This document shows, in pieces, positions 30,000 through 47,928 of a stretch of 64,000 bases of DNA. A program made the position numbers and the translations under genes. The notes below the pieces were generated by a model. The model did no database searches and had not been told where the DNA came from. It saw only the letters and a list, made by a program, of their open reading frames with translations. The DNA lies in NCBI GenBank assembly GCA_963793115.1, contig CAWBYV010000008.1, positions 228,250-292,249 on the forward strand, read 5' to 3'. How positions within the stretch are numbered: the first letter of the stretch is position 1; every line of letters starts with the position of its first letter. The stretch comes from an uncultured delta proteobacterium. Lineage in GTDB: Bacteria; Desulfobacterota; Binatia; Binatales; Binataceae.

Positions 30000-32900
30000 T
30001 TAATGGAAGTCGTGCGAGCGGGGGATCGCGGCGTCGAGGCGGAGCTCGGCGAAGCGCTGGCCGCGCACGTTGATCACGCCGTCGGCCTTTTGCAGCACGC
30101 CTTCGACCATCAGGATTTGCGCGCGATGGAGCAGCGCGCGGTGCCGCTGGAATACATCCGGGATGACTATAGCATTGGCTATTCCGGTTTCATCCTCGAG
30201 CGTGACAAAAAGGAAGCCCTTCGCGGTGCCCGGCCGCTGTCGCACGATCACGACGCCCGCGACTCTGACGGTCGAACCGTGAGCGGCGCTGGCCAATTCC
30301 GCCGCGCTCAGCACGCCGCGCGCCTTGAGCCTCGATCTGAGATGGGCCATCAGATGGGGGCCGGTCGTGACGCCGGTTGAAGCATAGTCGGCAACGGTTT
30401 CCTCGACCGGCGTCATCGTGGGAAGCGGCGCGGTTCCGGGAGCCGGCTCCGCACCGGCGAGCAGGCTTTGCGGGTCGCGCTCGACGGCGGCGACCTGCCA
30501 TAGAGCGTCGCGGCGCTCCAGAGTGAATGCGCTGAACGCGCCGGCGTGAGCGAGCGCGTCGATTTCGCGCCGGTTGGGACCGACGCGCGCGCTGAAGTCG
30601 GCGATCGATCTAAAGGGCCGGATGGCGCGTTCGCGCTCGATCGTGTGCGCGGCTTCGTCGCGGAGTCCGGCGATGTATCTGAGGCCAAGGCGGAGCGCTC
30701 TCAGTCGGGGGCTTGTCTCCGCACTCTCCCTTCTGCACCTCTCCCTGACCAGTCGCCACCGGCGCGGGGAGAGGTCGCCTCTTGATTTGCTACTGCAAGT
30801 CGCGAGGCGGGTGAGGGTAAACGTGCGAGAAGACCATCGCCAGAAGAGTAGGAAGGCAATACCCTCACCCGGCGCGCAGACGCGCCGGCCTCTCCCGCGC
30901 CGGTGGCGACTGGTCAGGGAGAGGCGAAGAGCAGAGCGTCGGCTGATCCTCGAGCGTGCATTTCCAATTGGAGCGCGTGACATCGATCGGAAGCACCGTG
31001 ACGCCGTGGCGTTGGACGTCTTTGACCAGAGTCGAGGGATGGTAGAAGCCGAGCGGATAACAATTGAGCATCGCGGCAAAGAACGCCGCCGGATGATGGC
31101 ACTTCAGATACGCGGAGGCATAGGCGATAAGCGCGAAGCTGGCGGCGTGCGATTCCGGAAAGCCGTAAAGCGCGAATGAAGTGATCGATCGCACGATCTC
31201 GTCGGCGCGGGCACCGGTGATCCGGTTGCGCGCCATTCCGTCGCGCAGCCGCAGCTCGATCTTTTCCATCCGCGCCGCCGAGCGCTTGAACCCCATCGCG
31301 CGGCGCAGCTCCTCGGCTTCGCCGCCGCTGAAACCCGCCACGGTCATCGCCATCCTGAGCAACTGTTCCTGAAAGAGCGGCACGCCGAGCGTGCGGCGCA
31401 AAATTGGTTCGAGCGAAGGATGAGCATAGCGGACCGGCGCGCGGCCGTTGCGGCGATCGAGATACGGATGGACCATTTTTCCTACTATCGGTCCGGGCCG
31501 GATTATCGCAACCTCGACCACCAGGTCGTAAAAGTTACGCGGCTTCATCCGCGGCAGCGTCGCCATCTGGGCGCGGCTTTCGACCTGAAAGACGCCGACC
31601 GTGTCGGCCCGCCGCAGCATCGCGTAGACCTCTGGATCGTCCGGCGGGAGATGGGCGAGGTCGACCGCGACGCCTTCATGTTGGCGGACGAGCGGAAGAG
31701 CCTCCTCCAGTACGGCGAGCATCCCCAGCCCGAGCAGGTCGATCTTGATGATCCCCAGGTCTGCGCAGTCTTCCTTGTCCCACTGGACGACCACCCGCCC
31801 CGGCATCGAGGCCGGCTCCAGCGGCACGATCTCGTCGAGCGGCCCCGCGCCGATCACCATCCCGCCGCTGTGCTGGCCGAGATGGCGCGGGAGACCCTGG
31901 AGCGGCGCACCAGTCCGATCAGCAGCCGGATTCGCGGGGTGCGGGGATCGATGCCGCCATTGTGGAGCAGCGCCGCGATATCATCGTGATCGTCGCGAAA
32001 CTCGTAGACGCGGTTGAGCTTCGCGAGGCGATCGACCTGAGCGAGCGAGAAGCCCAGCGCCTTGCCGGCCTCGCGCACGGCGCTGCGCGTGCGATAGGTA
32101 ATCACGTTGGCGGTCATCGCGGCGCCGCGCTCGCCGTAACGGCGATAGACGTACTGAATCACCTTCTCGCGCTGATCGCCGCTGGGCAGGTCGATATCGA
32201 TATCGGGCCACTCGCCGCGTTCCTCGGACAAAAAGCGCTCGAACAGGAGTTCCATCCTGACCGCGTCGACCGCGGTGATTCCGAGCGCGTAGCAGACCGC
32301 ACTGTTGGCCGCCGAGCCGCGGCCCTGCGCCATGATCCGGTTTTCGCGGCAAAACTGCACAACGTCCCATACGATCAAAAAGTAGCCGGCGAGCTTGAGC
32401 CGCTCGATTACGCCGAGCTCGTGCTCGAGCTGCTGGCGCACGCGCGGCCCGGGCTCCGCGCCCCATCGTTCGCGCGCGCCCGCCCGGGTCAGTGCGCGCA
32501 GGTAGCTGTCGGGCGTTTCGCCGGGCGGGATCGGATAGTCGGGAAACCGGTAGCCCAGGTCCTTGAGCGTGAACTCACATCGCGCGGCGATTTCGCGGGT
32601 CGCAGCGATCGCGCCCGGCAGATCGCGGAACGACGCTGCGACTTCGGCCGGCGGTTTGAGATAGCGCTGGTTGTTGACCCACAGCGCCCGCCCGGCTTCG
32701 TCCAGCGTGGTCTTGAGCCGGATACAGGTGAGCACGTCGAGCAATTCGCGCTCGGTTCCGGTGTGACAGACGTCGTTGGTCGCGACGATCGGAACTCGCA
32801 TCGCGGCGGCGAGCGCGAGCAGCTTGCGATTGAGCCGCTCCTGGCCGGGATCGAGATGGCGCTGGAGATCGATAAAGAGATTTCCGGCGCCGAGGCTCGC

Positions 32901-33389
32901 GCCGAGCCGGTCGCATAGTTGACGCGGATTTTCGCCCCGCAAGAGCATCCGCGAGACCGGGCTGAAAACGCCGCCGGCGATACAGATCAGGCCGGCGCCG
33001 AATCGCTCGAGGTCGTCGAGGCTGATGCGGCCCTCGCCCTTGGGAGCGCGCAGCTTCGAGCCGGTGATCATCCGGCAGAGATTTTTGTAACGTGCACGAT
33101 CGGGAACCAGGATGTAGAGCCGCGACGGCGCGGCATCGCGCTCGCGCCCGGATTGCCCGACGTTATCTTCCAGAGTCAGCTCGGCGCCGACTATCGCCTT
33201 GATCCCGGCGCGGACCGCGGCGTGATAAAAGCGGGGCGCTCCGTAAAGTCCGTCGCGATCGCCCAGCGCGAGCGCGGGATAGCCGAGCGCGGCGGCGCGA
33301 TCGACCAGGTCCTCGGGGGTTGCGGCGCCTTCGAGAAAGCTGAACGCGCTGCGCGCGCGCAGCTCGATATAGTCAGAGTGAGTAGTCAT
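30000..33389 (-). CDS. dnaE2: error-prone DNA polymerase DnaE2 (ImuC), interrupted by a roughly 190-bp palindromic repeat insertion near 30736-30926
   Basis: Three ORFs (31854..33389 PHP/pol III alpha N-terminal, 30865..31860 fingers/thumb, 30000..31079 OB-fold C-terminus) are colinear with DnaE2. Frames change at 31860 and inside the repeat element. Confidence 0.8.
30736..30926. repeat. composite REP/MITE-like element: two inverted units (head TACCCTCACCCG.. tail ..TGGTCAGGGAGAGG) forming a roughly 190-bp hairpin, inside dnaE2
   Basis: Left arm 30738-30774 (CCTCTCCCTGACCAGTCGCCACCGGCGCGGGGAGAGG) is the reverse complement of right arm 30889-30924. Inner GGGTGAGGGT / ACCCTCACCC at 30810-30819 and 30861-30870. 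Confidence 0.6.
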
Positions 33390-33408
33390 TACTATTACAA
33401 CTCAGCGA

Positions 33409-33572
33409 CAGACGACCCTCACCGGCGAGCCATTTGCTTACGCAAATGCTCGCCGACCTCTCCCTGGTCAGGGAGAGGTGTAGATTTGGCGGCGCTTTTC
33501 TTCGCCTCTCCCTGACCAGGGAGAGGCCGGCGCGGACGAGCGGAAGCTCGCTATACGCCGGGTGAGGGTAGC
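33409..33572. repeat. composite REP-like element (two units tail-to-tail) in the imuB-dnaE2 intergenic region
   Basis: GACCCTCACCGGCGAGC..CCTCTCCCTGGTCAGGGAGAGGTG (33409-33480) and the inverted unit CCTCTCCCTGACCAGGGAGAGG..CCGGGTGAGGGTA (33504-33572). Confidence 0.6.
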
Positions 33573-33641
33573 CTGAACGCACCGCTCCATCGTGTGCTCC
33601 TCCAACATTAGTCACGGCATTCCATGCGGGCGGTTGAATAG

Positions 33642-35357
33642 CTAGTCATAGAGTCCATCCACGAACCATTGATGAGAGCGCAGGTCGCAGAACATCCGGT
33701 AGACAGCGCCGTCGGCGAGCGCGACATCGTAGTAATCGCGGGCGAGGGGAGTGGCTATTGTTCTGGAAAAAGACCTCTCCCCGAACCCCTCGCCCGCAGG
33801 GGAGGGGCAGGAGATGGTTGCGCCATTTTCTCTATGGTTCCCCCTTTCCAGGGAGAGGGTGGGGGTGAGGGTTTCTTCGCGCCACCATTCGCCCTCACGC
33901 CGCCACGGCCCCGAGATCGAGACCACGCGCGCGCATACGGTTCGTCCCCGCACAAATTCCGGCACGCCGCCGCGGGTGCACATCACCTCGACTTCCTCGG
34001 CGGGGCGAATCGCGCGGATCACGAGCCGCGCGATATTAGCGGCTACGTCTTTTTCAGGTGGAAGAGATACCCTCACCCGGTGAGCGCAGCGCTCACCGGC
34101 CTCTCCCCGCGCCGGGGGCGACTGGTCAGGGAGAGGTGAAGAAGGAGGAACGGGAGAAGGCGGAGGGGGATCGAACGGGACGACTTCGATCGCTTCGGGG
34201 CGCCAGGAATTGACGGGCTTGAGCGTGCCGACGCGACCGGGGCCACAGATGGCGGCCAGGCGCGCGATCGTGGTCTGCAAGCGATCTGGAGCAGGCGAGG
34301 GCGGCAGGAACAGGTCGGTCTGCGCCGGGCGCGGGACTCGCGGCTCGGCGGTGATTCGGATCGTTCCGATCGCGGCGGACGGCGGCGCCGCTTCGAGACT
34401 CAGGATTATCAGCGCGAGTAGCGAGCGGACCTCGTTAGTGGGCGCCGCGATCGCAACCCGCCGATCATAAACGCCGTGCCCGTCAAGCCCGAGCGAGAGC
34501 ATCAGGTCGCCGGCGACCAGGCCGCGAAGTTCGAGCCGCGCGGCCAGCCGCTCGACCATCGGGCGCATCACGAAGCCGAGCGGCTCGAGCATTTCGATTC
34601 CGTAATCCAGCTCGACCGTCTCGGCGAACAGCTCGGCGCGCGGGCAGGGGATGAACGGCGCATTATTTTCGCCGCGCGCGAGGCGGGCCAGATCCACGCC
34701 GCGTGCGCCGAGCCGGCTGCCGAGCGCGCAGGGTTCTATCCGGGCAAGCTCGCCAAGCCGGCGGATACCCCATCGCGCGAGCGTAAACACCAACTCGGCG
34801 CCGTCGGGATCGTCCGCGCCGGTGGCGAGCACGTCGAGCGGCATCCAGTCGAGGAACTCGCGCTCCTTACAAGCGGGGATCGCTCTTTGCCCGCCGCATC
34901 GCGCCGCGAGCCAGGCGGCCTCCTTGCTCGACGCGATTCCAATCGCGGCGTCGAATCCGACTTTCGCCGCGCGCCGCGCGAGTTCCGCCGCCATCTGCTC
35001 TTCCGTGCCATGGATTCCGGCGAGTCCTGCCAAATCGAGATACGCACATCCCGGCCCGCCGTCCTCGACTATCGGTGAGAATGACTCGGCTGCGTCCAGT
35101 ATCGCATCATGGGCCGAGCGTTCGGCGGCCGGCGACGGCGCAACGGGAATCAGCCCGGATACGAGCGCGCGCGCCTGCGCGACCGTCATCCCGGCCCGCA
35201 CGCCGGAGGTCCTCGCGCACGCGGAGACCGCGGTAAGCTCGGCGTGTCCTTCGCGGCCGGCGCTCAGCGCGACGGGCCGATCGCGCAGCTCGGGATTGGC
35301 GCGGACGATCGCGGCGACGGGAAAATCGCCAATCAGGATACATGCAATACGAGCCAT
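33642..35357 (-). CDS. imuB: ImuB (Y-family polymerase-like) protein of the imuA-imuB-dnaE2 mutagenesis cassette, carrying in-frame repeat-derived insertions
   Basis: 571-aa intact ORF. N-terminal UmuC/DinB-like fold (MARIACILIGDFPVAAI..). Conserved C-terminal motif DYYDVALADGAVYRMFCDLRSHQWFVDGLYD. Two REP-like units (33771-33875, 34068-34137) are translated in frame as SSPLPDQSPPARGEAGERC.. and ..EGEWWREETLTPTLSLERG... Confidence 0.75.
   Translation of the reverse strand: MARIACILIGDFPVAAIVRANPELRDRPVALSAGREGHAELTAVSACARTSGVRAGMTVAQARALVSGLIPVAPSPAAERSAHDAILDAAESFSPIVEDGGPGCAYLDLAGLAGIHGTEEQMAAELARRAAKVGFDAAIGIASSKEAAWLAARCGGQRAIPACKEREFLDWMPLDVLATGADDPDGAELVFTLARWGIRRLGELARIEPCALGSRLGARGVDLARLARGENNAPFIPCPRAELFAETVELDYGIEMLEPLGFVMRPMVERLAARLELRGLVAGDLMLSLGLDGHGVYDRRVAIAAPTNEVRSLLALIILSLEAAPPSAAIGTIRITAEPRVPRPAQTDLFLPPSPAPDRLQTTIARLAAICGPGRVGTLKPVNSWRPEAIEVVPFDPPPPSPVPPSSPLPDQSPPARGEAGERCAHRVRVSLPPEKDVAANIARLVIRAIRPAEEVEVMCTRGGVPEFVRGRTVCARVVSISGPWRREGEWWREETLTPTLSLERGNHRENGATISCPSPAGEGFGERSFSRTIATPLARDYYDVALADGAVYRMFCDLRSHQWFVDGLYD
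33771..33875. repeat. degenerate REP-like unit inside imuB coding sequence
   Basis: GACCTCTCCCCGAACCCCTCGCCCGCAGGGGAGGGG and TCCAGGGAGAGGGTGGGGGTGAGGGT, divergent copies of the tail and head motifs. Confidence 0.4.
34068..34137. repeat. REP-like unit inside imuB coding sequence
   Basis: TACCCTCACCCGGTGAGCGCAGCGCTCACCGGCCTCTCCCCGCGCCGGGGGCGACTGGTCAGGGAGAGGTG, full head-palindrome-tail architecture. Confidence 0.55.
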
Positions 35358-35372
35358 CGGAGTCGCATTGGT

Positions 35373-36240
35373 TCAGGCGCACCTAACCCCTAACCCCTTC
35401 CCGACGCGGGAAGGGGAACCTTGCTCCATTTCTCCACCGCTCCCGTCCACCAGCGCGTGCCAGCTCGCGCGCGCGCCGACGCCGCCCAGCTTGTTGCGCG
35501 CGACCAGCGCCTCGATCGCGAGACCGTCGAACAGCGAGGGGGCTCCGATCGCGCGACGGCTGAAGCAGGCCTGGTTGCGGCTGAGCATGAGACTTTGCGC
35601 GGCGAACGTTCCGCACATCCGGAAGGTCGCGAGCACGATCACGGCGGCGCCGGTCCGCTCCGCGATCCGGGCGATTCGAAGCGCCGCGCTGTGCGGAATC
35701 GCGCGAGTGGAGTTGCCGAAGTCGATAACGACCAGGCCGAAGCCGCCCGCCTCCAGGACCAGTTCAGCGGCACGAACGGTCGCCACCGGCGCGGTCGCCC
35801 CCGGCGTCGCCATCGGCGCGGCGGCGGCATTCCATTCAAATCGAGGCGAGCGATCGACGCGCGGCGATGACCACAACACGCGCGTGAGGTCGGCGCCTGG
35901 CCGCCGCGACAGTCACAGGATCGAAACTGCCCGCTGAATCGATCCACGCCGCAGCTTCACCACCGCGGGTCGCTGACGCGACGAAGCAGGCGGCGAGCGA
36001 GGTCTTGCCGGCGCCGACCGGACCGACGATTTCGCTGATTCTGCCGCGTACGATTCCCGCGCCCAGCAGACGGTCGATCAGAGTGAGCCCCGAGCTTAGG
36101 CGGCGGGCTTTGCGGGTAAGTTCGCGGCCGGTAAAAACTCCTGTGATTTTAAGAGCTTGTAATGTTTTGACAGATCCGGCAAGAGGCGCCGAATTGGCTT
36201 GAGAAAGCCCGCTCAAAGTGCTGGAAAGCGACGCAGCCAC
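35373..36240 (-). CDS. imuA: ImuA (RecA/SulA-like) protein (frame break near 35860)
   Basis: ORF 35836..36240 has the Walker A-like loop (EIVGPVGAGKTSLAACFVASA). Continuation in ORF 35373..35879 (..GGFGLVVIDFG..). Position directly upstream of imuB. Confidence 0.6.
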
Positions 36241-41709: not shown

Positions 41710-42057
41710 TCAGATCGTAATGAAGGCGTTCAGCTTGGCGCGGACGAGTTGCGCAACCTCAGTCGGCACGGCAGCGCCCGCGTAACGGACGCGGCGGGCT
41801 ATCGCGTCGATACTGCGGATGTGGCTGGTCAGGATTTCGCCGGCGATCGGCAAGCCCGGCGGCAGAGCGACGCTGGTCGGAAATGGCCGCACGCGTGACG
41901 TGATAGGGCAGACAATTGCCAGCCCGGTGTTTTCGGTAAACCTGGCCGAAGAAACCACCAGAGCCGGTCGCCGGCCTGCCTGCTCCCTGCCTCTCGTCGG
42001 GTCAAAGTCAGTCCAGATCAGATCGCCTGCGCCGGGTGCGTAGGCTCGCCGGGTCAT
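41710..42057 (-). CDS. mazF: type II toxin MazF/PemK-family mRNA interferase
   Basis: 115 aa. GDLIWTDFDPTRGREQAGRRPALVVS matches the PemK/MazF N-terminal beta-strand signature. Confidence 0.8.
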   Translation of the reverse strand: MTRRAYAPGAGDLIWTDFDPTRGREQAGRRPALVVSSARFTENTGLAIVCPITSRVRPFPTSVALPPGLPIAGEILTSHIRSIDAIARRVRYAGAAVPTEVAQLVRAKLNAFITI

Positions 42058-42326
42058 TCTTCGACGATCTCACGGCCCACGTCCGGTCCCCAATCGAAGG
42101 CCCCGGCATAGGCCGCCCGCCACTGCTTAGGGCTCTTGCCCGCGAACAGCTCGTCCAAAGTGAAATGCGGAACGCTGCGTCGGATCACGATCTCCCCGTC
42201 ATGAGTCTCAATCTCGACACGCTCGCCGGCGCTAAGCGCGGCGGCCCTCACGGTCTCGCCCGGCAACCGGATCGCGAGATTTCTTCCCCATTTCCCGACT
42301 ATAGCTTGACGCACAGTGTCTCCCAT
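42054..42326 (-). CDS. mazE: type II antitoxin, MazE/AbrB-type swapped-hairpin family
   Basis: 90 aa. KWGRNLAIRLPGE..GERVEIETHDGEIVI matches the SpoVT/AbrB/MazE fold pattern. 4-nt overlap with mazF. Confidence 0.75.
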   Translation of the reverse strand: MGDTVRQAIVGKWGRNLAIRLPGETVRAAALSAGERVEIETHDGEIVIRRSVPHFTLDELFAGKSPKQWRAAYAGAFDWGPDVGREIVEE

Positions 42327-42404: not shown

Positions 42405-42793
42405 GTTTGGCAAGCTCTGCTTCTGGACCTTGGAATGGAACGAAGGGCCCCTTATTCTCGCGAGATTAGGGGCTGTTTTCAGGTCCGGGCGGGCAATCCC
42501 CCATTCCCATCTCTCAGCCATCTCTCATGTGCCAACCGATTTAAGGCTGTCTGAGACGGCTCTCGCCGGCCGTTGATTCTCCCCCGGCTTCGGCCGTTTC
42601 CGGGCCGTTCCGCCCTGATCCGGGCTCGGCTGCGGTCATCCATCGACACGGGGGACCGGGCTCGGCTGCGGCCGGGCTTCCCGGATCGGGACCCTTCAAA
42701 GGCCACTGGCGACCGAAGTCATCCGCTGACAGAATTAGATCGACGATCAAACTGGAGGCACCGGGTTGGACTGGCGGTTCTGACAAAGGACCC

Positions 42794-42998
42794 TATGACG
42801 GGCAGCTATGACAAGCAGTTTGAGGCTGCGGAGCACTACCTCAAATGCGACCGTTGCTCACGCCTATTTCGTGCTGCAGTAGAAGAATCCCTCAACCCCG
42901 TATTCGCACAATCAAATGGCCCACTTGGCCCGCTACGTTTTGACGAAGTTCTGCTGGACGAGTTTCGCAAGTGTCCCAATTGGCCATCGGGGCTTTAG
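42794..42998 (+). CDS. hypothetical small Cys-containing protein (possibly the N-terminal part of the next ORF)
   Basis: AAAGGA RBS 4 nt before the ATG. 68 aa with KCDRC and KCPNW. Lower GC than flanks. Confidence 0.3.
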
Positions 42999-43441
42999 AC
43001 CGGATTCCCACGGCAGAGGAGTTCGCCGCATTTGATGGCGAACACTGCCGAACCTTGTGGACGACTTGTGCTGCTGATTGGCGGTGCCCCGGCTGCAACC
43101 GGACGAGATTTGAGCTTCTCAGATGGACTAAAAAAATCTGGTATCCGGGCATTGGACCGGATCGGACCAAGCCTTATTGGGGTTGGAAGGCGGCACTCCA
43201 CCGGCACCATGATCACGCGCGCCCGGCGAGATTTGACGAGACCGTCGTCTGTGACCAATGTAATTCTCTCGACGCCATAGTGAAGCGGTACTTCGGCGGG
43301 ATTCGGCCCGAGTTTTCATACTCGCCGGACGAGATTCGCCAAATCGTTTCACCCGCACCGCATCGTAGCCACAAAGTTGACTTTCAGAAGGCGAGGCGCA
43401 TCTACAACGGGTGGCTGGAGTCGAAAAGAGTCCATCGGTGA
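42971..43441 (+). CDS. hypothetical Cys/His-rich (zinc-binding?) protein
   Basis: 156 aa, GTG start. WRCPGCNRT .. HRHHDH .. CDQCN pattern suggests a metal-binding His-Me-finger-like or zinc-ribbon module. Lower GC (mid-50s %). Confidence 0.35.
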   Translation: MSQLAIGALDRIPTAEEFAAFDGEHCRTLWTTCAADWRCPGCNRTRFELLRWTKKIWYPGIGPDRTKPYWGWKAALHRHHDHARPARFDETVVCDQCNSLDAIVKRYFGGIRPEFSYSPDEIRQIVSPAPHRSHKVDFQKARRIYNGWLESKRVHR

Positions 43442-43533
43442 GAGATGTATCTTTGACCGACCCGTCGAGAGGCGAGACGAGATGTATTTTGGCTTCGAAT
43501 CTTCAGTCGCGAGGTTTCACGGTACCGACATTT

Positions 43534-43839
43534 CTACTTCCCCTTGAGGCGCGGATCGTCGGTCGCGATGCAGGCTGCACTCGTGAGGTCGTTCAGCCGT
43601 TGTTCCGCGCCTTTTGCATGGCGGTCTACGGCCTCTCCCCCTTGCTGGATCAGCTCATCAACTCTTTTCTTGCAATCGTTGGCAGTGTCGAAGCTACCGA
43701 GGAGCGTCCACTCAGAAACAGGAGTGCTTAGGTCAACATCCATTTCATGCGTTTGATGATCATACGGCATTGGCGGAACCATCAGATACCAACCCGTGAG
43801 CGCGAGCGCGGCGGCGTGGCGCAGCTTCACTTTAACCAT
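43534..43839 (-). CDS. hypothetical secreted protein
   Basis: AGGAG RBS before ATG 43839. Signal peptide MVKVKLRHAAALALTGWYLMVPP. 101 aa. Low GC. Confidence 0.35.
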   Translation of the reverse strand: MVKVKLRHAAALALTGWYLMVPPMPYDHQTHEMDVDLSTPVSEWTLLGSFDTANDCKKRVDELIQQGGEAVDRHAKGAEQRLNDLTSAACIATDDPRLKGK

Positions 43840-44002
43840 CTCCTGCCCTCGATCCTGCCCCATCACCGCGCCCAAAGGAAAGAGCGGCCGACGATTTGTA
43901 GAGGGTCCCCCGGCCCCACGCGCCAGCAAAGGGGGGCGAAGCCAGCACGTCCTCGTCGTAGTGAGGGATGTGGCCTAACGGGCGTTGGGGTTGATTTCAG
44001 TT

Positions 44003-44758
44003 TCACCAATCGATCGTCAAGATCTGTGAACGGTGCCCACCCATATCTTCGTACATTTGGCGGTTGTGAAAGTTCAGTTGGCATTGACCCAAGTCTTCGC
44101 CCTCAATAGAGAGCCCGGTGAGTGGTGTGGGAGGGCCCTCAGGTTCTAGGAAAAGCAGGAACCAAAATCCACGGAAGGAGAACAACCCACCCTCAATGTG
44201 CTTGCCGTGCCTATTAATAATAAGAGGGGCAAACCCGACAGCATCTGAAGAATATCCCGTCATCCCTACGCGGACGATGGAATACAGACCTGCCCGATCC
44301 CCAAACCGCCCCAGTCCGTACGCGGTTTGAACGAGTCGGTCTGTTGGCCGACCAGGAACGTTGGAGTTACGCCCGATCGGGTAGATTTGATGGCAGCAAA
44401 GGTTGATCAGAGTCTTGAGGAACCAACGTTCCAAGCCAAGGCCATCTATCCTTCGCCTGGCGACCCTCCAGCGCCTCGGCTTCATTCGCCCACGCACATT
44501 TGACAGCCGTCCAATCTCTCTGAGCACGGAAAACGCTTCCGCGCCTGCCCTGTCCACGCAAGATAAGGCTTCGTTGTGATGCTTACAAAGAACCTTCGCC
44601 GTGAGGGCGGCGAGCCCGATCTCTTTCGCAGAGTCCTTACACCACGAGAATCCTTGCACGCGCACTGTATCAGTGATGAAGAGCGCGCCGGATACAAGGT
44701 GTTCTCTCGACAGCTTCTGGCTGCAATCTCCAAGACATGCCGCCCAGCACGCTCCCAT
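44003..44758 (-). CDS. HNH (His-Me finger) nuclease-domain protein with uncharacterised C-terminal domain
   Basis: ATG at 44758 gives MGACWAACLGDCSQKLSREHLVSGALF..KVLCKHHNEALSC: CxxxC..EH..(N)..LCxHHN resembles the HNH motif. Roughly 170-aa C-terminal region has no similarity I can assign. Lower GC than the genome. Confidence 0.45.
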   Translation of the reverse strand: MGACWAACLGDCSQKLSREHLVSGALFITDTVRVQGFSWCKDSAKEIGLAALTAKVLCKHHNEALSCVDRAGAEAFSVLREIGRLSNVRGRMKPRRWRVARRRIDGLGLERWFLKTLINLCCHQIYPIGRNSNVPGRPTDRLVQTAYGLGRFGDRAGLYSIVRVGMTGYSSDAVGFAPLIINRHGKHIEGGLFSFRGFWFLLFLEPEGPPTPLTGLSIEGEDLGQCQLNFHNRQMYEDMGGHRSQILTIDW

Positions 44759-44759
44759 A

Positions 44760-45083
44760 CTAATCTCTCTCGACGGAGACCTCCGCCGGTGTCGTGCCTC
44801 TCGATCCGGTGAGTGGGTTGTGCGCCGACTCTTGTCCGCGCAGCTGCCGGCCATAGTGCCCAAAACCTCCCGCCCCGATCCTCGTTGCCTTCCCGCGTTC
44901 TAACTCCGCCGCGCCCGATGGCGCTCGGCCCGAGCCAGAGACCGTGTCGCAGTCGCGACGGAGACAGTTCTCCCACGGAGTCTCTTTTTCCAGCAATTCG
45001 CGGAAGTCCGGGCTTTGCTCGATTAGCTGATCGATCAGATCGTCGCCCTCTTCCAGAGGAACCGTGTGCTTCTCACGTTTCAT
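44760..45083 (-). CDS. hypothetical small protein (partner ORF upstream of the HNH gene)
   Basis: 107-aa ORF. First roughly 45 aa (MKREKHTVPLEEGDDLIDQLIEQSPDFRELLEKETPWENCLRRDC) are lower-GC and protein-like. Stop TAG overlaps the downstream ATG as TAGTATG. Confidence 0.3.
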   Translation of the reverse strand: MKREKHTVPLEEGDDLIDQLIEQSPDFRELLEKETPWENCLRRDCDTVSGSGRAPSGAAELERGKATRIGAGGFGHYGRQLRGQESAHNPLTGSRGTTPAEVSVERD

Positions 45084-45092
45084 CGCTTGGCC

Positions 45093-45749
45093 TCATCGCT
45101 TCGCCGGTTGGCGAAAGGTCCAGAAGCGGACGCCGGTCGCGCCTGCGGCTTGGCCATCGATGATCAGCTCGAAGCCGTGGCGGCGATAGAAGGCGACATT
45201 GCGTGGATTTTCGGTCTCCACGTAACACGGCACGCCTTCGCGACGCGCCCGCTCCAGCATCGGCGCGATCAGTTCGCCGCCCAATCCGCGCCCCTGGAGC
45301 GCCGGTTCCACGCCCAGCAGAAGCAGATACCAGTACGGCTCCGTCATGTCGCGTTCGCGCGCCTGCGCCTCAAGCCCGACCACTTCGCGAAATCTTGCGA
45401 TCGCGTCTGCGCCGATGACGCTGGAAAGCTCATGGAGGCCCGCCGCCTGCACCCGTTCGCGCGTCCATTGAACGCCCGGCGGCAGCCAGAGCGCGACTGC
45501 TTCCATCGCGCCCGCGGTCGTATAAACCTCGCCGGCAAGCACGCCGAAGCGCAGCATCCGGATATAGAATTCCGGCAGCATTCGCGCGCGCTCGGCCGCG
45601 TCCGAGATGGCGTAGGCCATCAGCGGATCGTTCTGGAAAGCCCGTCCTAGTATCGCCGCCGCATCCCCGACCTGCGCTTCGCGTACGATTTCGCTTTGCC
45701 GTTTCACTCGATGTGTCTCTGCGAAGCAGTCTATCCGATCGGTTATCAA
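45093..45749 (-). CDS. GNAT-family N-acetyltransferase
   Basis: 218 aa. Acetyl-CoA binding motif (LLLGVEPALQGRGLGGELI) and C-terminal YRRHGFE. Confidence 0.75.
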   Translation of the reverse strand: MITDRIDCFAETHRVKRQSEIVREAQVGDAAAILGRAFQNDPLMAYAISDAAERARMLPEFYIRMLRFGVLAGEVYTTAGAMEAVALWLPPGVQWTRERVQAAGLHELSSVIGADAIARFREVVGLEAQARERDMTEPYWYLLLLGVEPALQGRGLGGELIAPMLERARREGVPCYVETENPRNVAFYRRHGFELIIDGQAAGATGVRFWTFRQPAKR

Positions 45750-46896: not shown

Positions 46897-47928
46897 ATGC
46901 CTGACCCTGATGGCGCATCCCCTAACGGCTCGCGCGTTGAATACGAGCTGCAACTCTACTACTGGCTGAAGCTGATCCGCTCGTTCGAAGATCGCGTCTC
47001 GAGGCTCCATCGGCAGAACAAGATTGTGGGCGGCGTTTACTCGGGCGCCGGACAGGAGGCGATCGTCACGGGAATCTGCGCGCCGCTTCGCGACGGCGAT
47101 TTCGTCGCGCCACTCCATCGCGACCTTGGCGTCTTCCTGATCCGCGGCGTCGAGCCGGGCCGGCTGATGGCTCAACTGATGGGCAAGGAGACCGGCCTGT
47201 CGCGCGGCAAGGACTCGTTCCTGCACGGCGGCGACCTGGAGCACGGCATCTTCGGCTCGACCTCGATGCTCGGCGCGTCATTGCCGGTCGCGGTCGGCGC
47301 GGCGCTCAAGTTCCAGATCAAGCAGGAGAAGCACGTCGCGGTGGCGTTCTTCGGCGAGGGAGCGGCCTCGCGCGGCGACACGCACGAGGCGATGAACTTC
47401 GCCGGCGTGCGCAAGCTGCCGGTGATCTTCGTCTGCGAGAATAATCGCTACGCCTACTCGACGCCGCTGGAAAAGCAGATGGCGATCGAGGACGTTGCCG
47501 AGCGGGCCGCCGCGTACGGATTCAAGGGGCATATCTGCTCGGGCAACGATCTGCTGGCGGTGCTGGAGCCAGCGAGCGCGTGATCGGGCAGGTGCGCGAG
47601 GGGGACGGGCCCGCGCTGATCGAATGCAAGACCTACCGCTACCGCGGGCACAGCGAGCATGATCCGGCGCTCTACCGCGAGAAAGAGGAATTGCTCCAAT
47701 GGGAGAGCCGCGACCCGATTCCGCAGTTCGAGTTCTACCTGGAAAAGAAGGGCCACGAGATGGCTCCGCTGCGCGAGCAGATCGACGAGCGCGTGCGCCA
47801 GGTCGATCCAGCAGGCGGTCGATTTCGCCGAGCAGAGCCCGTTTCCCGAACCTAAAGAAGCACTTGAAGATCTGTACGCAACCCCGGTCGGCCCCGGAGC
47901 CGCCAGGAACAGCCCGGTCAGGAACTAG
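46897..47928 (+). CDS. 2-oxoacid dehydrogenase E1 component alpha subunit (TPP-binding) (frame breaks near 47570 and 47800)
   Basis: ORF 46897..47583 has the TPP motif region (FFGEGAASRGDTHEAMNFAGVRKLPVIFVCENNRYAYSTP). Continuation ..GPALIECKTYRYRGHSEHD.. in ORF 47580..47855. C-terminus in a third frame. Confidence 0.75.

Follow-up and report, generated by a model that had tools for sequence, protein, structure and literature searches.

Rugutis is a single-gene, Abi-like anti-phage system carried on lactococcal plasmids (pUCCL633_059, 359 aa; Grafakou et al. 2024, PMC11381338; Mosterd et al. 2025, PMC12184496). Its phage resistance has been shown experimentally (PMC11381338), and the toxicity of the lactococcal protein is triggered by the large terminase of the phage (PMC11381338, PMC12184496). 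The other described proteins that come close to the one analysed here are the His-Me finger nucleases. T4 endonuclease VII, like the protein described below, has a (D/E)-His that ends a strand and a CxxC/H-Asn that begins a helix, flanked by two zinc-ligand pairs; on an alignment of 20 proteins of its family (PF02945; alignment A4), the residues of the T4 enzyme are C23, C26, D40-H41 and C58-x2-C61-N62. The His-Cys-box enzyme I-PpoI has CCCH zinc sites. Many HNH, endonuclease VII and His-Cys box nucleases reside on mobile elements, as do members of the family considered here.

In the window, i.e., the whole 64,000-nt stretch of DNA from an uncultured delta proteobacterium (Binatales) that was analysed, the minus strand carries an intact gene (44003–44758) for a 251-aa protein (MGACWAACLGDCSQKLSREHLVSGALF...KVLCKHHNEALSC) and, ahead of it, ORF107 (44760–45083), whose 107-aa product starts MKREKHTVPLEEGDDLIDQLIEQSPDFRELLEKE; both lie at the positions given in the initial annotation. 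The 251-aa protein has 222 homologues at E ≤ 1e-3, and its family comprises 3007 cluster representatives at 50% identity. The taxonomic centre of the family is in Acidobacteriota, Proteobacteria and Actinobacteria. That the family is an unrecognised one was borne out, since the protein has no match in Pfam, NCBIfam, PADLOC, PHROGs or PDB sequences. At E ≤ 10, a Pfam search with 32 alignment members returned noise only (DUF5920, Ras, Ermin), and PDB sequence matches of the full and N-terminal profiles to SAM50 and LSm8 were dismissed as chance. The ATG at 44758 is, as judged from the homologues, the true start: these are of ~249 aa with the N-terminus MxxCWA (MGACWA in the window protein, which has no SEC-C motif, PF02810), and the N-terminal extensions found in longer gene calls are not conserved. 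The GC3 of the gene is 0.60, against 0.80–0.88 in the neighbouring housekeeping genes. Scans of this region for promoters, terminators and Rfam families gave nothing above chance, and the window contains no tRNA genes. The gene is real, intact, stand-alone and mobile.

Two conserved elements were found in the alignment of 275 family members. The N-terminal Cys/His module (residues 1–70; 44549–44758, minus strand) consists of C4, C12, E19-H20, C58-x2-H61-N62 and D69, with a conservation of ≥99% in ~250–270 homologues. The candidate zinc ligands are C4 (244/245), C12 (250/250), C58 (270/271) and H61 (270/271), accompanied by the polar residues E19 and H20 (253/254 each), N62 (270/271) and D69 (273/273). 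A second motif, LERWFLKTLIN (residues 109–119; 44402–44434, minus strand), is located in helix 106–121 and contains near-invariant E110 (273/275), W112 (273/275) and K115 (274/274); used as a search pattern, it recovered 56 genomic loci. The Cys/His/Glu/Asn pattern of the family is far above chance.

The initial annotation described about 170 aa of the protein as having no assignable fold. No family could be assigned to it, but in the AlphaFold2 model the entire protein forms a single unit with high confidence (pLDDT 89, pTM 0.90). Residues 1–125 folded alone gave a poorer model (pLDDT 71) than the full-length protein, which makes a domain-only structure search uninformative. In the predicted secondary structure, H20 ends strand 16–20, and C58-x2-H61-N62 opens helix 59–64, which bears N62 and comes after strand 53–58. 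A comparison of the predicted structure with nucleases, also suggested in the initial annotation, yielded no match to a solved nuclease: in Foldseek searches against PDB there was none among the matches of either the full model (best E-value, 0.35) or the N-terminal model (best E-value, 4.2), split short motifs being hard to detect by this method. The one real match obtained by Foldseek (full model against PDB and BFVD, N-terminal model against PDB) was A0A9E7QQD9, presumed from its matching length of 271 aa to be a truncated family member, gp3 of Mycobacterium phage Sejanus. This match contains no functional information.

The initial annotation interpreted the N-terminal motif as a His-Me finger core. 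As to residues, this interpretation is supported in part: an invariant candidate general-base His (H20), a candidate Asn metal ligand (N62) and two pairs of candidate zinc ligands are present, the Cys ligands, the E-H dyad and CxxHN are near-invariant, the predicted secondary structure agrees, and C4, C12, E19-H20 and C58-x2-H61-N62 are arranged like the T4 endonuclease VII set. It found no support in profile comparisons. Neither the 32 alignment members nor 6 distant members matched any family of the HNH clan (CL0263) in hmmscan against Pfam at E ≤ 10, and hhalign of the family alignments A3 and A1 against A4 gave a probability of 0.1% (P 0.65–0.7). Since neither profiles nor structures of the HNH type were matched, nor the T4 endonuclease VII profile, the His-Me-finger call is one of motif and secondary structure only, and the protein has a possible His-Me-finger-like nuclease motif. 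It differs from His-Me finger nucleases not only in this want of detectable profile or Foldseek similarity, but also in having ~32 extra residues (an additional hairpin) between the half-motifs, a Cys/His module that is embedded in a single 250-aa fold instead of forming an independent domain, and an extra invariant helix motif.

Among the alternatives, the one that survives best is that the protein is no nuclease and that its Cys/His cluster, a zinc knuckle within a novel fold, has a structural role only. Residues E19, H20, N62, D69, E110 and K115 would then serve another hydrolase activity, the modification of nucleotides or proteins, or the sensing of a phage protein, and a stand-alone role in defence or conflict would still be conceivable. 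We regard this as rather unlikely, because the set of residues, their order, the way they are spaced along the secondary structure, and a CxxH-N/D where the helix starts all fit zinc-bearing His-Me fingers, and the 32-residue insertion between the half-motifs would alone be enough to defeat detection by profiles and Foldseek.

The reading of the 251-aa protein as a nuclease-type defence effector involves its relation to Rugutis, which was approached through a homologue from an E. coli P2 prophage. This homologue led to a SEC-C protein of 359 aa on plasmids of Irish dairy Lactococcus, presumed from its length, host, niche and annotation to be pUCCL633_059. The presumed Rugutis family includes SEC-C proteins from the E. 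coli P2-prophage end and from Vibrio, Sphingobium, Shinella and Enterococcus plasmids. SEC-C is also found in distant members of the 251-aa family, namely Mao1 gp3 (PF02810, 24.9 bits), L059, L060 and Bradyrhizobium NK6, so that in either family an N-terminal SEC-C is present in some members and absent from others. When the SEC-C-bearing members were included, hhalign of the two families gave 93.8% (E-value, 1.7e-7). Without SEC-C, P values of 0.0036, 0.0011 and 0.00045 were obtained at a weak probability of 9–33%, over ~70 residues in constant register, and A1 against A5 gave P 0.03; the reversed controls gave P 0.26–0.76. In the presumed Rugutis family, residues C57, C65, H73, C118, H121, D122 and E130 are in register with the Cys/His module, and the ordered motif common to the two families is C-x7-9-C-x6-(E/A)H ... 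C-x2-H-(N/D)-x6-7-(D/E). The presumed Rugutis family has Ala at the position of E19, and E19 is therefore no universal metal ligand.

Like the 251-aa family, Rugutis is a single gene without a partner on plasmids, prophages and TA-rich islets, and it likewise has a confident AlphaFold2 fold with no PDB match. On the other hand, the window protein has 251 aa, not 359 aa, lacks SEC-C, and has EH/HN where Rugutis has AH/HD. The motif LERWFLKTLIN and the C-terminal half do not align, the C-terminal two thirds of the protein giving no alignment with the presumed Rugutis family, and the Rugutis family is centred on Firmicutes and Gammaproteobacteria, apart from the taxonomic centre of the 251-aa family. 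Direct tblastn searches of Lactococcus plasmids with the window protein, L059 and P0114 gave no match, and neither did a short SEC-C query. A SEC-C plasmid protein of Bacillus thuringiensis was set aside as a member of an unrelated CxxCxxCC family. From these alignments, it is plausible that the 251-aa family is a remote relative of Rugutis. A bolder proposal, that the window gene belongs to a very large SEC-C-less sister branch of Rugutis with at least 3000 clusters, found for the most part in Acidobacteriota, Proteobacteria and Actinobacteria of soil and in the plasmids and phages of these, and that the shared C..C..H..CxxH(N/D) is a cryptic zinc-stapled nuclease site of the His-Me type within a fold that lacks a solved relative, is put forward tentatively, and we consider it doubtful.

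The best reading of these data is that the 251-aa protein may be a stand-alone, Rugutis-like defence effector, a candidate for a zinc-stapled enzyme with a His-Me-finger-like site. According to this model, a structural zinc coordinated by C4, C12, C58 and H61 would staple a beta-hairpin to a helix, and H20 at the strand end and N62 at the helix start, aided by E19 and D69, would make up a His-Me-finger-like site of a metal-dependent nuclease. Residues E110, R111 and K115 of the LERWFLKTLIN helix, along with the beta-rich C-terminal half, might either hold the substrate or restrain the enzyme. The protein, having no immunity partner, would be inactive until a phage cue is received, and damage to nucleic acid would then stop the infection. 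If both the Rugutis link and the nuclease-like site are true, about ten invariant residues become mutagenesis targets in both families, which would provide the first concrete, mutable catalytic hypothesis for stand-alone defence proteins of the Rugutis type.

The genomic settings of the homologues were compared as well. The family gene is solitary in 60+ other loci, and when the ORFs up to 3 kb away were clustered all against all in 61 loci, no shared neighbour emerged. In 59 out of 62 loci its GC content is below that of the flanks (by 6.2 points on average), and the family is horizontally mobile. Its members are found in a prophage with Abi_alpha, with a type I R-M system and an integrase, in a TIR/STAND island, beside Cas1, with a DUF2442/DUF4160 pair, on conjugative plasmids, with IS elements and in mycobacteriophages. 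Some homologues lie between plain housekeeping genes, and hence the defence context is suggestive, not statistical. A pattern scan of the viral contigs of IMG/VR gave no confirmed relative. Mao1 gp3 was also considered as a terminase-associated HNH protein, an idea that was dropped because gene position alone is no proof; an endonuclease VII is already annotated elsewhere in this phage. The family thus appears as a large one that is missing from Pfam, NCBIfam, PADLOC and PHROGs, and that combines a confident new predicted fold with the population behaviour of defence or conflict genes.

It could also be argued that the gene is a selfish one, a free-standing element of the homing-endonuclease or addiction kind that spreads for itself and not for the protection of its host. 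It is solitary, is exchanged into intergenic slots with short flanks of its own, is often wedged among housekeeping genes with tiny spacers and has a GC content systematically below that of the host, and the mycobacteriophage relative is located between the terminase and portal genes, an interval that is a typical place for mobile nuclease genes. Such an origin is nevertheless improbable, as the insertion sites are neither recurrent nor within conserved target genes, no association with introns or inteins was seen, flanking repeats do not rise above chance, plasmids, TA genes and defence genes are enriched in its settings, and Rugutis, the likely relative, gives phage resistance experimentally (PMC11381338).

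The position of the putative defence effector gene in its own genome was determined from synteny via 90%-cluster mates, with blastn and tblastn comparison to the syntenic Candidatus Binatales loci L071–L074. On one side, the locus is bounded by a conserved GNAT acetyltransferase gene (45093–45749, minus strand; PF00583, E-value 2.3e-10), which has 83% DNA identity to L071 and L072. The other conserved flank is a mazE-mazF toxin-antitoxin pair (41710–42326, minus strand; PF02452, E-value 5e-23; PF04014, E-value 8e-10) with a DNA identity of 86–96% to L071–L074. Homology to the sister genomes ends ~5 nt past the phd stop codon (44902–44900 of the window) and restarts at 43820, inside orf131. The segment in between (43821–44894, minus strand) is composed of the 251-aa gene with 136 nt of upstream and 182 nt of downstream sequence, and has no sister counterpart; no homologue of the 251-aa protein was found in L071–L074 by blastn or tblastn, and the sister genomes have other cargo in the phd-mazEF slot. 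The slot between phd and mazEF is thus hypervariable, and the 251-aa gene is strain-specific, single-gene cargo in it. No repeats above chance were found flanking the cargo. An inverted repeat at both cargo boundaries (43803–43817 and 44903–44917) was treated as chance because it is imperfect and rich in GC, and because its two arms are less complementary in the sister genomes.

The same comparison demonstrates that ORF107 is what decay has left of the 3' half of an antitoxin gene of the Phd/YefM type, a pseudogene relic that is read through into the cargo DNA and is unrelated to the 251-aa protein. The homologous segment (44895–45063, minus strand) has 84.6% DNA identity over 169 nt to L073 (550–717) and L072 (4307–4474), and positions 45063–44922 have 84.5% DNA identity over 142 nt to L071 (7752–7892). 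The sister Phd genes (90 and 105 aa) match PF02604 above threshold through residues 1–49 (40.0 and 33.8 bits), whereas no PF02604 match was found in ORF107 by Pfam. The first ~37 codons of phd, which encode most of the N-terminal DNA-binding/dimerisation domain of PF02604, are deleted in the window, and ORF107 keeps the antitoxin only from residue 38 onward: residues 38–63 of Phd/YefM at the equivalent position in the sister genomes are 77% identical to residues 8–33 of ORF107 (VPLEEGDDLIDQLIEQSPDFRELLEK). After residue 33, following ...FRELLEK, the frame is shifted at an A-run (44985–44989, minus strand) with one extra base relative to the sister genomes (MAFFT, ctggaAaaagag versus ctgg-agaagag). 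In contrast to Phd/YefM, no cognate toxin gene remains for ORF107, and 70% of its product is out-of-frame; the last two thirds have a GC2 of 0.63, which is not coding-like. A search of 5.8 billion proteins retrieved only the self-match of ORF107, and tblastn gave no match in 61 homologue loci.

The indel in the A-run may be an assembly error, because the E1-alpha dehydrogenase gene on the same contig also has a 1-nt indel; without it, the relic ORF would stop at 44902–44900, 141 nt before the 251-aa gene. At its other end, 13 nt spanning the stop codon of the GNAT gene are duplicated in tandem (45080–45105, minus strand; direct repeat D5, TCATCGCTTGGCC / TCATCGCTTCGCC), and this makes the ATG of ORF107 and an apparent GAGG ribosome-binding site. 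A deletion took the DNA-binding N-terminal half of the antitoxin together with the upstream gene, which is weakly ParE-like in L071; the 13-nt duplication at the deletion junction supplied the ATG, and the 1-nt indel lets the frame continue to a chance TAG one base ahead of the 251-aa gene.

The initial annotation reported the stop and start codons as overlapping in TAGTATG; this string is present, but the two codons do not overlap, with TAG at 44762–44760, ATG at 44758–44756 and one base (44759) between them. Even though the two ORFs share a strand and are parted by that single base, GAGG stands 8 nt ahead of the ORF107 ATG, ORF107 is called a gene in the NCBI/ENA annotation, and its antitoxin-like N-terminus derives from the toxin-binding region of an antitoxin, the translationally coupled module proposed there (a nuclease toxin with its immunity protein or antitoxin, or a two-component effector) is very improbable, given that ORF107 is an orphan with no related or conserved neighbour in the 60+ homologue loci, its antitoxin-like part is homologous to phd of sister genomes that lack the 251-aa gene, phd of L071 pairs with the weakly ParE-like gene, the 70 residues at its distal end come from reading through in another frame and have a non-coding composition, the ATG and GAGG stem from the junction duplication, and, should the indel in the A-run be due to misassembly, ORF107 ends 141 nt short of the 251-aa gene. 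The resemblance of the small ORF to antitoxins had been recognised correctly, but its reason is a different one, a Phd/YefM remnant. The GC-rich middle of ORF107 is non-coding, an outcome that the initial annotation had named, along with a degenerate HNH gene, as refuting its proposal; the 251-aa gene is intact. A 107-aa ORF located 4 nt upstream of a homologue on a Granulicella plasmid is unrelated to ORF107 and unconserved. Comparison with sister genomes has removed a false two-gene system here; a neat stop/start junction in a GC-rich genome can arise from pseudogene read-through into inserted DNA. The combined reading, with ORF107 as a phd relic and the 251-aa gene as solitary mobile cargo, a remote Rugutis relative and, as we infer, a nuclease-type defence effector, is on balance the probable one.

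Two further small genes, orf131 and orf156, are found between the 251-aa gene and mazE-mazF, and, like ORF107, they have no match in Pfam, NCBIfam, PADLOC or PHROGs. The product of orf131 (43534–43929, minus strand), located downstream of the 251-aa gene, is probably secreted; the gene is shared with L071 only from 43820 downward, where tblastn against L071 9367–9654 gave 41% over 99 aa. The second window-specific cargo gene, orf156 (42971–43441, plus strand), is absent from the sister loci and has a classical motif of the endonuclease VII type, CPGC...HRHHDH...CDQCN. By hhalign, its HRHHDH...VVCDQCN is in register with NHLDHDH...LLCNLCN of the T4 endonuclease VII family (P 0.0047), and this alignment served as a rough positive control for the endonuclease VII test of the 251-aa family. 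The phd-mazEF slot of Candidatus Binatales offers a small natural hotspot in which more cargo genes may be found.

The 251-aa gene (44003–44758, minus strand) is intact, solitary and mobile, and it has no partner gene. A GNAT acetyltransferase gene (45749–45093; PF00583), a 107-aa ORF (ORF107, 45083–44760) and the 251-aa ORF follow each other in tight succession on the minus strand. A word-indexed search returned 222 homologues of the 251-aa protein (identity, 45–67%), nearly all of 247–252 aa and all labelled 'hypothetical', and an exhaustive profile search at E ≤ 1e-3 yielded 3007 cluster representatives (clustering at 50% identity), including 519 at E ≤ 1e-30. Since the homologues begin with MxxCWA, and the N-terminal extensions present in longer gene calls show no relationship among themselves, ATG 44758 is confirmed as the start of the gene and a 286-aa TTG-initiated version is excluded. 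The protein has no matches in Pfam, NCBIfam, PADLOC or PHROGs, the family matches no PDB sequence, and 32 aligned members together with six distant ones hit no Pfam family even at E ≤ 10. AlphaFold2, supplied with a 32-sequence alignment, produced one confident single unit (pLDDT 89.3, pTM 0.90). Structure comparison, which had been proposed in the initial annotation, gave no support for a known fold, the best solved structure found by Foldseek with the full model having an E-value of 0.35. The sole real viral match was a 271-aa protein, presumably, by its length, the truncated homologue gp3 of Mycobacterium phage Sejanus. Residues 1–125 folded alone gave a poorer model (pLDDT 71), with which a structure search again found no match, so the N-terminal part is not an autonomous domain.

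The family has a conserved Cys/His/acidic constellation. Among 275 aligned sequences, very distant members included, conservation was complete for C12 (250/250), D69 (273/273) and K115 (274/274), and near-complete for C4 (244/245), E19 and H20 (253/254 each), C58, H61 and N62 (270/271 each), as well as E110 and W112 (273/275 each), while C8 is variable and C40 is missing from distant members. In the AlphaFold2 model, strand 16–20 ends with H20, and C58-K-H-H61-N62 opens helix 59–64 immediately after strand 53–58, an arrangement that, in one dimension, is the signature of His-Me fingers with bound zinc. The equivalents in T4 endonuclease VII, the numbering of which was confirmed on retrieved PF02945 proteins, are C23, C26, D40-H41 and C58-x2-C61-N62, and CCCH zinc sites occur in the His-Cys-box enzyme I-PpoI.

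Every statistical test of His-Me-finger membership failed: no HNH-clan profile in Pfam matched the family at E ≤ 10, Foldseek found nothing, and a comparison with the endonuclease VII family by hhalign returned P 0.65–0.7. The same endonuclease VII family aligned in register with the product of the neighbouring orf156 (P 0.0047). The latter gene (42971–43441, plus strand; 156 aa) encodes a classical CxxC...HHDH...CxxCN protein, whose zinc/HNH motif (WRCPGCNRT ... HRHHDH ... VVCDQCNSLD) is a textbook case of the endonuclease VII type, and it too has no match in Pfam, NCBIfam, PADLOC or PHROGs. An identical orf156 sequence was also found on a 1-kb Logan contig. In the 251-aa family, a 32-residue hairpin sits between the two half-motifs, an insertion that would hamper detection by profiles, Foldseek and hhalign, so that the result is consistent with, but does not demonstrate, a His-Me finger. 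Of the HNH core proposed in the initial annotation, the near-invariant Cys, His, Glu and Asn residues stand and fit the predicted secondary structure; no known HNH family matches, and the HNH idea is plausible but unproven.

Taken together, these features make it somewhat probable that the protein combines a structural CCCH zinc site with a His-Me-type, metal-dependent nuclease centre. The predicted zinc site (C4, C12, C58 and H61) would staple the hairpin to the helix and thereby position H20 and N62, aided by E19 and D69, as the catalytic centre, while E110, R111, K115 and the beta-rich half might serve in substrate binding or in restraint of the enzyme. That it is a zinc protein and not a nuclease is considered rather unlikely.

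A functional clue to this putative nuclease may come from Rugutis, a single-gene, Abi-like anti-phage protein of lactococcal plasmids, which is triggered by the phage large terminase (PMC11381338, PMC12184496). Its papers give no sequence. In distant members of the 251-aa family (gp3 of Mycobacterium phage Mao1, proteins of loci L059 and L060, and Bradyrhizobium NK6 proteins), a SEC-C motif precedes the N-terminal module. Mao1 gp3 (397 aa; PF02810, 24.9 bits) gave a faint tblastn match to a SEC-C protein of E. coli STEC411 (379 aa; L076, 5962–7101, from record CP061244.1), in which PADLOC 2.0 matched the SEC-C motif only; its gene lies between gpD and hok, where a P2-like prophage ends. This prophage end is a hotspot for phage-defence cargo. 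The E. coli protein matches 34 plasmids, five of them from Lactococcus (three of these isolated from a dairy environment), and the SEC-C protein of Lactococcus plasmid pLLF72B (Ireland) is exactly 359 aa long and presumably represents Rugutis (pUCCL633_059) or a near-identical homologue.

An 11-member alignment of the presumed Rugutis family, three members of which have no SEC-C, contains invariant F117, C118, H121, D122, F126, E130, R147, E152 and D236, and near-invariant C57, C65 and H73. Compared with it by hhalign, the 251-aa family with its SEC-C-bearing members scored 93.8% (E 1.7e-7, 109 columns), the 251-aa family alone P 0.03, and its N-terminal module without SEC-C P 0.0036. After SEC-C had been trimmed from both sides, P was 0.0011 at full length and 0.00045 for the N-terminal parts only (reversed-sequence controls, P 0.26–0.76). 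The register was identical in every alignment: C4~C57, C12~C65, H20~H73, C58~C118, H61~H121, N62~D122 and D69~E130. Rugutis proteins have Ala at the position of E19, and the C-terminal two thirds of the 251-aa family do not align with them. Judged from these alignments, the link is probable, short of proof, with the N-terminal modules themselves fairly likely to be homologous, and the 251-aa gene is probably a new, SEC-C-less variant related to single-gene defence proteins of unexplained mechanism. The genomic contexts of the Rugutis family (the P2 prophage end, and positions beside vapBC, an Abi family gene, or an Fst toxin and a recombinase) suit a defence role. Following the example of Rugutis, for which the large terminase is the trigger, the 251-aa protein might tentatively be viewed as an effector of abortive infection or defence that works alone once a phage cue activates it. 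If the motif explains how Rugutis-type proteins act, the 251-aa locus matters more.

The distribution of the family is suggestive of a mobile accessory, defence or conflict gene. The gene is lower in GC than its flanks in 59 of 62 loci (mean difference, 6.2 points; up to 17), and the contexts are mutually unrelated: a prophage with Abi_alpha and NinG; immediately behind a type I R-M system and close to DUF4145, primase and integrase genes; an island that encodes TIR, STAND NTPase and trypsin/PDZ proteins; near Cas1; after uvrB, beside a DUF2442/DUF4160 pair; between enolase and methyltransferase genes; conjugative plasmids of Bradyrhizobium and Granulicella, and Rhodococcus and Mycobacterium plasmids, amid IS elements; and ICE-like regions of Acidobacteriaceae. 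In IMG/VR, a pattern scan brought up no confirmed relative. In mycobacteriophages Mao1, Sejanus and Mask, the gene lies between the terminase and portal genes; the SEC-C-bearing gp3 of Mao1 (L062, 1727–2920) directly follows the terminase, and in Sejanus the same member is split into two overlapping ORFs, gp3 and gp4 (L070, 1724–2921). This position is curious, because the large terminase triggers Rugutis, and candidate roles for the phage copy are those of a decoy or of superinfection exclusion, or it may simply be a moron.

In the window, the gene is, by comparison with four syntenic Candidatus Binatales loci (L071–L074) reached through 90%-identity mates of MazF, strain-specific cargo of a hypervariable slot between phd and mazE; the names Candidatus Binatales/Binataceae are also borne by cluster mates of NuoF and CofG from the window. 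By blastn, the GNAT flank (45817–45093) is ~83% identical to L071 and L072, and the other flank (42662 downward; mazE, mazF, cofG) 86–96% identical to L071–L074, and none of the four encodes a relative of the 251-aa protein or orf156. The slot spans ~42663–44894 in the window, 7893–9690 in L071, 4475–7083 in L072 and 718–3326 in L073, and holds different small genes in each genome: the 251-aa gene and orf156 in the window, and elsewhere genes for a 299-aa protein whose N-terminus is faintly PIN-like and for a membrane protein of the zinc-ribbon/DUF4234 type, and 155-aa and 75-aa ORFs. Relative to L071, the window-specific segment (44894–43821) comprises the 251-aa gene alone, flanked by 136 nt on its upstream side and 182 nt on the downstream side; homology restarts within the signal-peptide region of the small ORF orf131. 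The GC3 of the gene is 0.60, versus 0.80–0.88 in neighbouring housekeeping genes (F420-biosynthesis cofE, cofD, cofH and cofG, nuo genes, and 2-oxoacid dehydrogenase). An imperfect 15-nt GC-rich inverted repeat (43803–43817/44903–44917; 87% complementary) lies exactly at both cargo boundaries, inside the conserved flanks. Its complementarity is lower in L073, and it was judged to be due to chance. That this mobile gene is a selfish homing-type element is regarded as quite improbable.

The initial annotation, which was partly confirmed as a whole and the quoted peptide strings of which are correct, had read ORF107 and the 251-aa gene as a translationally coupled nuclease-immunity pair with overlapping stop and start codons; this pairing is refuted, as ORF107 is an orphan and evidently a Phd/YefM pseudogene relic, and the loci of relatives share no partner. 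The junction reads TAG-T-ATG, the stop (44762–44760) and start (44758–44756) being merely adjacent, with one spacer base. Among 5.8 billion proteins ORF107 matched only itself, tblastn found no match to it in 61 loci encoding relatives of the 251-aa protein, and clustering of all ORFs within 3 kb of the relatives revealed no common neighbour of any kind. By blastn, window 45063–44895 is 84.6% identical to L073 and L072 (L071, 84.5% over the shorter span 45063–44922), and it corresponds to the 3' half of an intact sister antitoxin gene, whose products (90 or 105 aa) match PF02604 through residues 1–49 (33.8 and 40.0 bits). The window lacks the initial ~37 phd codons, and Phd residues 38–63 equal ORF107 residues 8–33. 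One extra A in the run 44989–44985 shifts the frame after ...FRELLEK, and the homology stops ~5 nt past the sister stop codon (window 44902–44900); the last 70 residues are read-through, out-of-frame and cargo-derived, with a GC2 of 0.63 versus 0.23 in the first 35 codons. The ATG of ORF107 and the GAGG before it come from the 3' end of the GNAT gene, 13 nt of which are tandemly duplicated at the stop codon (GGCGAAGCGATGA / GGCCAAGCGATGA; minus strand, 45080–45105). The duplication marks the deletion junction at which the phd 5' half was lost along with either a weakly ParE-like gene (the arrangement of L071, where a 95-aa gene of this kind precedes phd) or an aldo-keto reductase gene (that of L072).

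The extra A may be an assembly error, since the E1-alpha 2-oxoacid dehydrogenase gene of the same contig (46897–47855, plus strand) is split into two overlapping ORFs at 47560–47590 by a 1-nt deletion relative to L072 (GAG-CC vs GAAACC); the gene is split similarly in L071, which suggests single-base indel errors in these assemblies. If so, 141 nt would separate the end of the relic ORF from the 251-aa gene; with or without the indel, there is neither coupling nor a functional pair. In Granulicella tundricola, plasmid pACIX905 has a hypothetical gene, annotated at 107 aa (L063, 5673–5996), 4 nt upstream of a family member; it is unrelated to ORF107, has no match in any other locus and was rejected as a partner, the equal length being a coincidence that could mislead. 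Elsewhere in the window, the minus-strand region 30865–35879 carries an ImuB-like gene (33642–35357; PF00817) and split DnaE2-like ORFs (30865–33389), which match the RecA_N/IMS/PHP-polymerase mutasome cassette of L072; the IMS gene is assigned by Pfam, and the DnaE2-like reading comes from translations and from L072.
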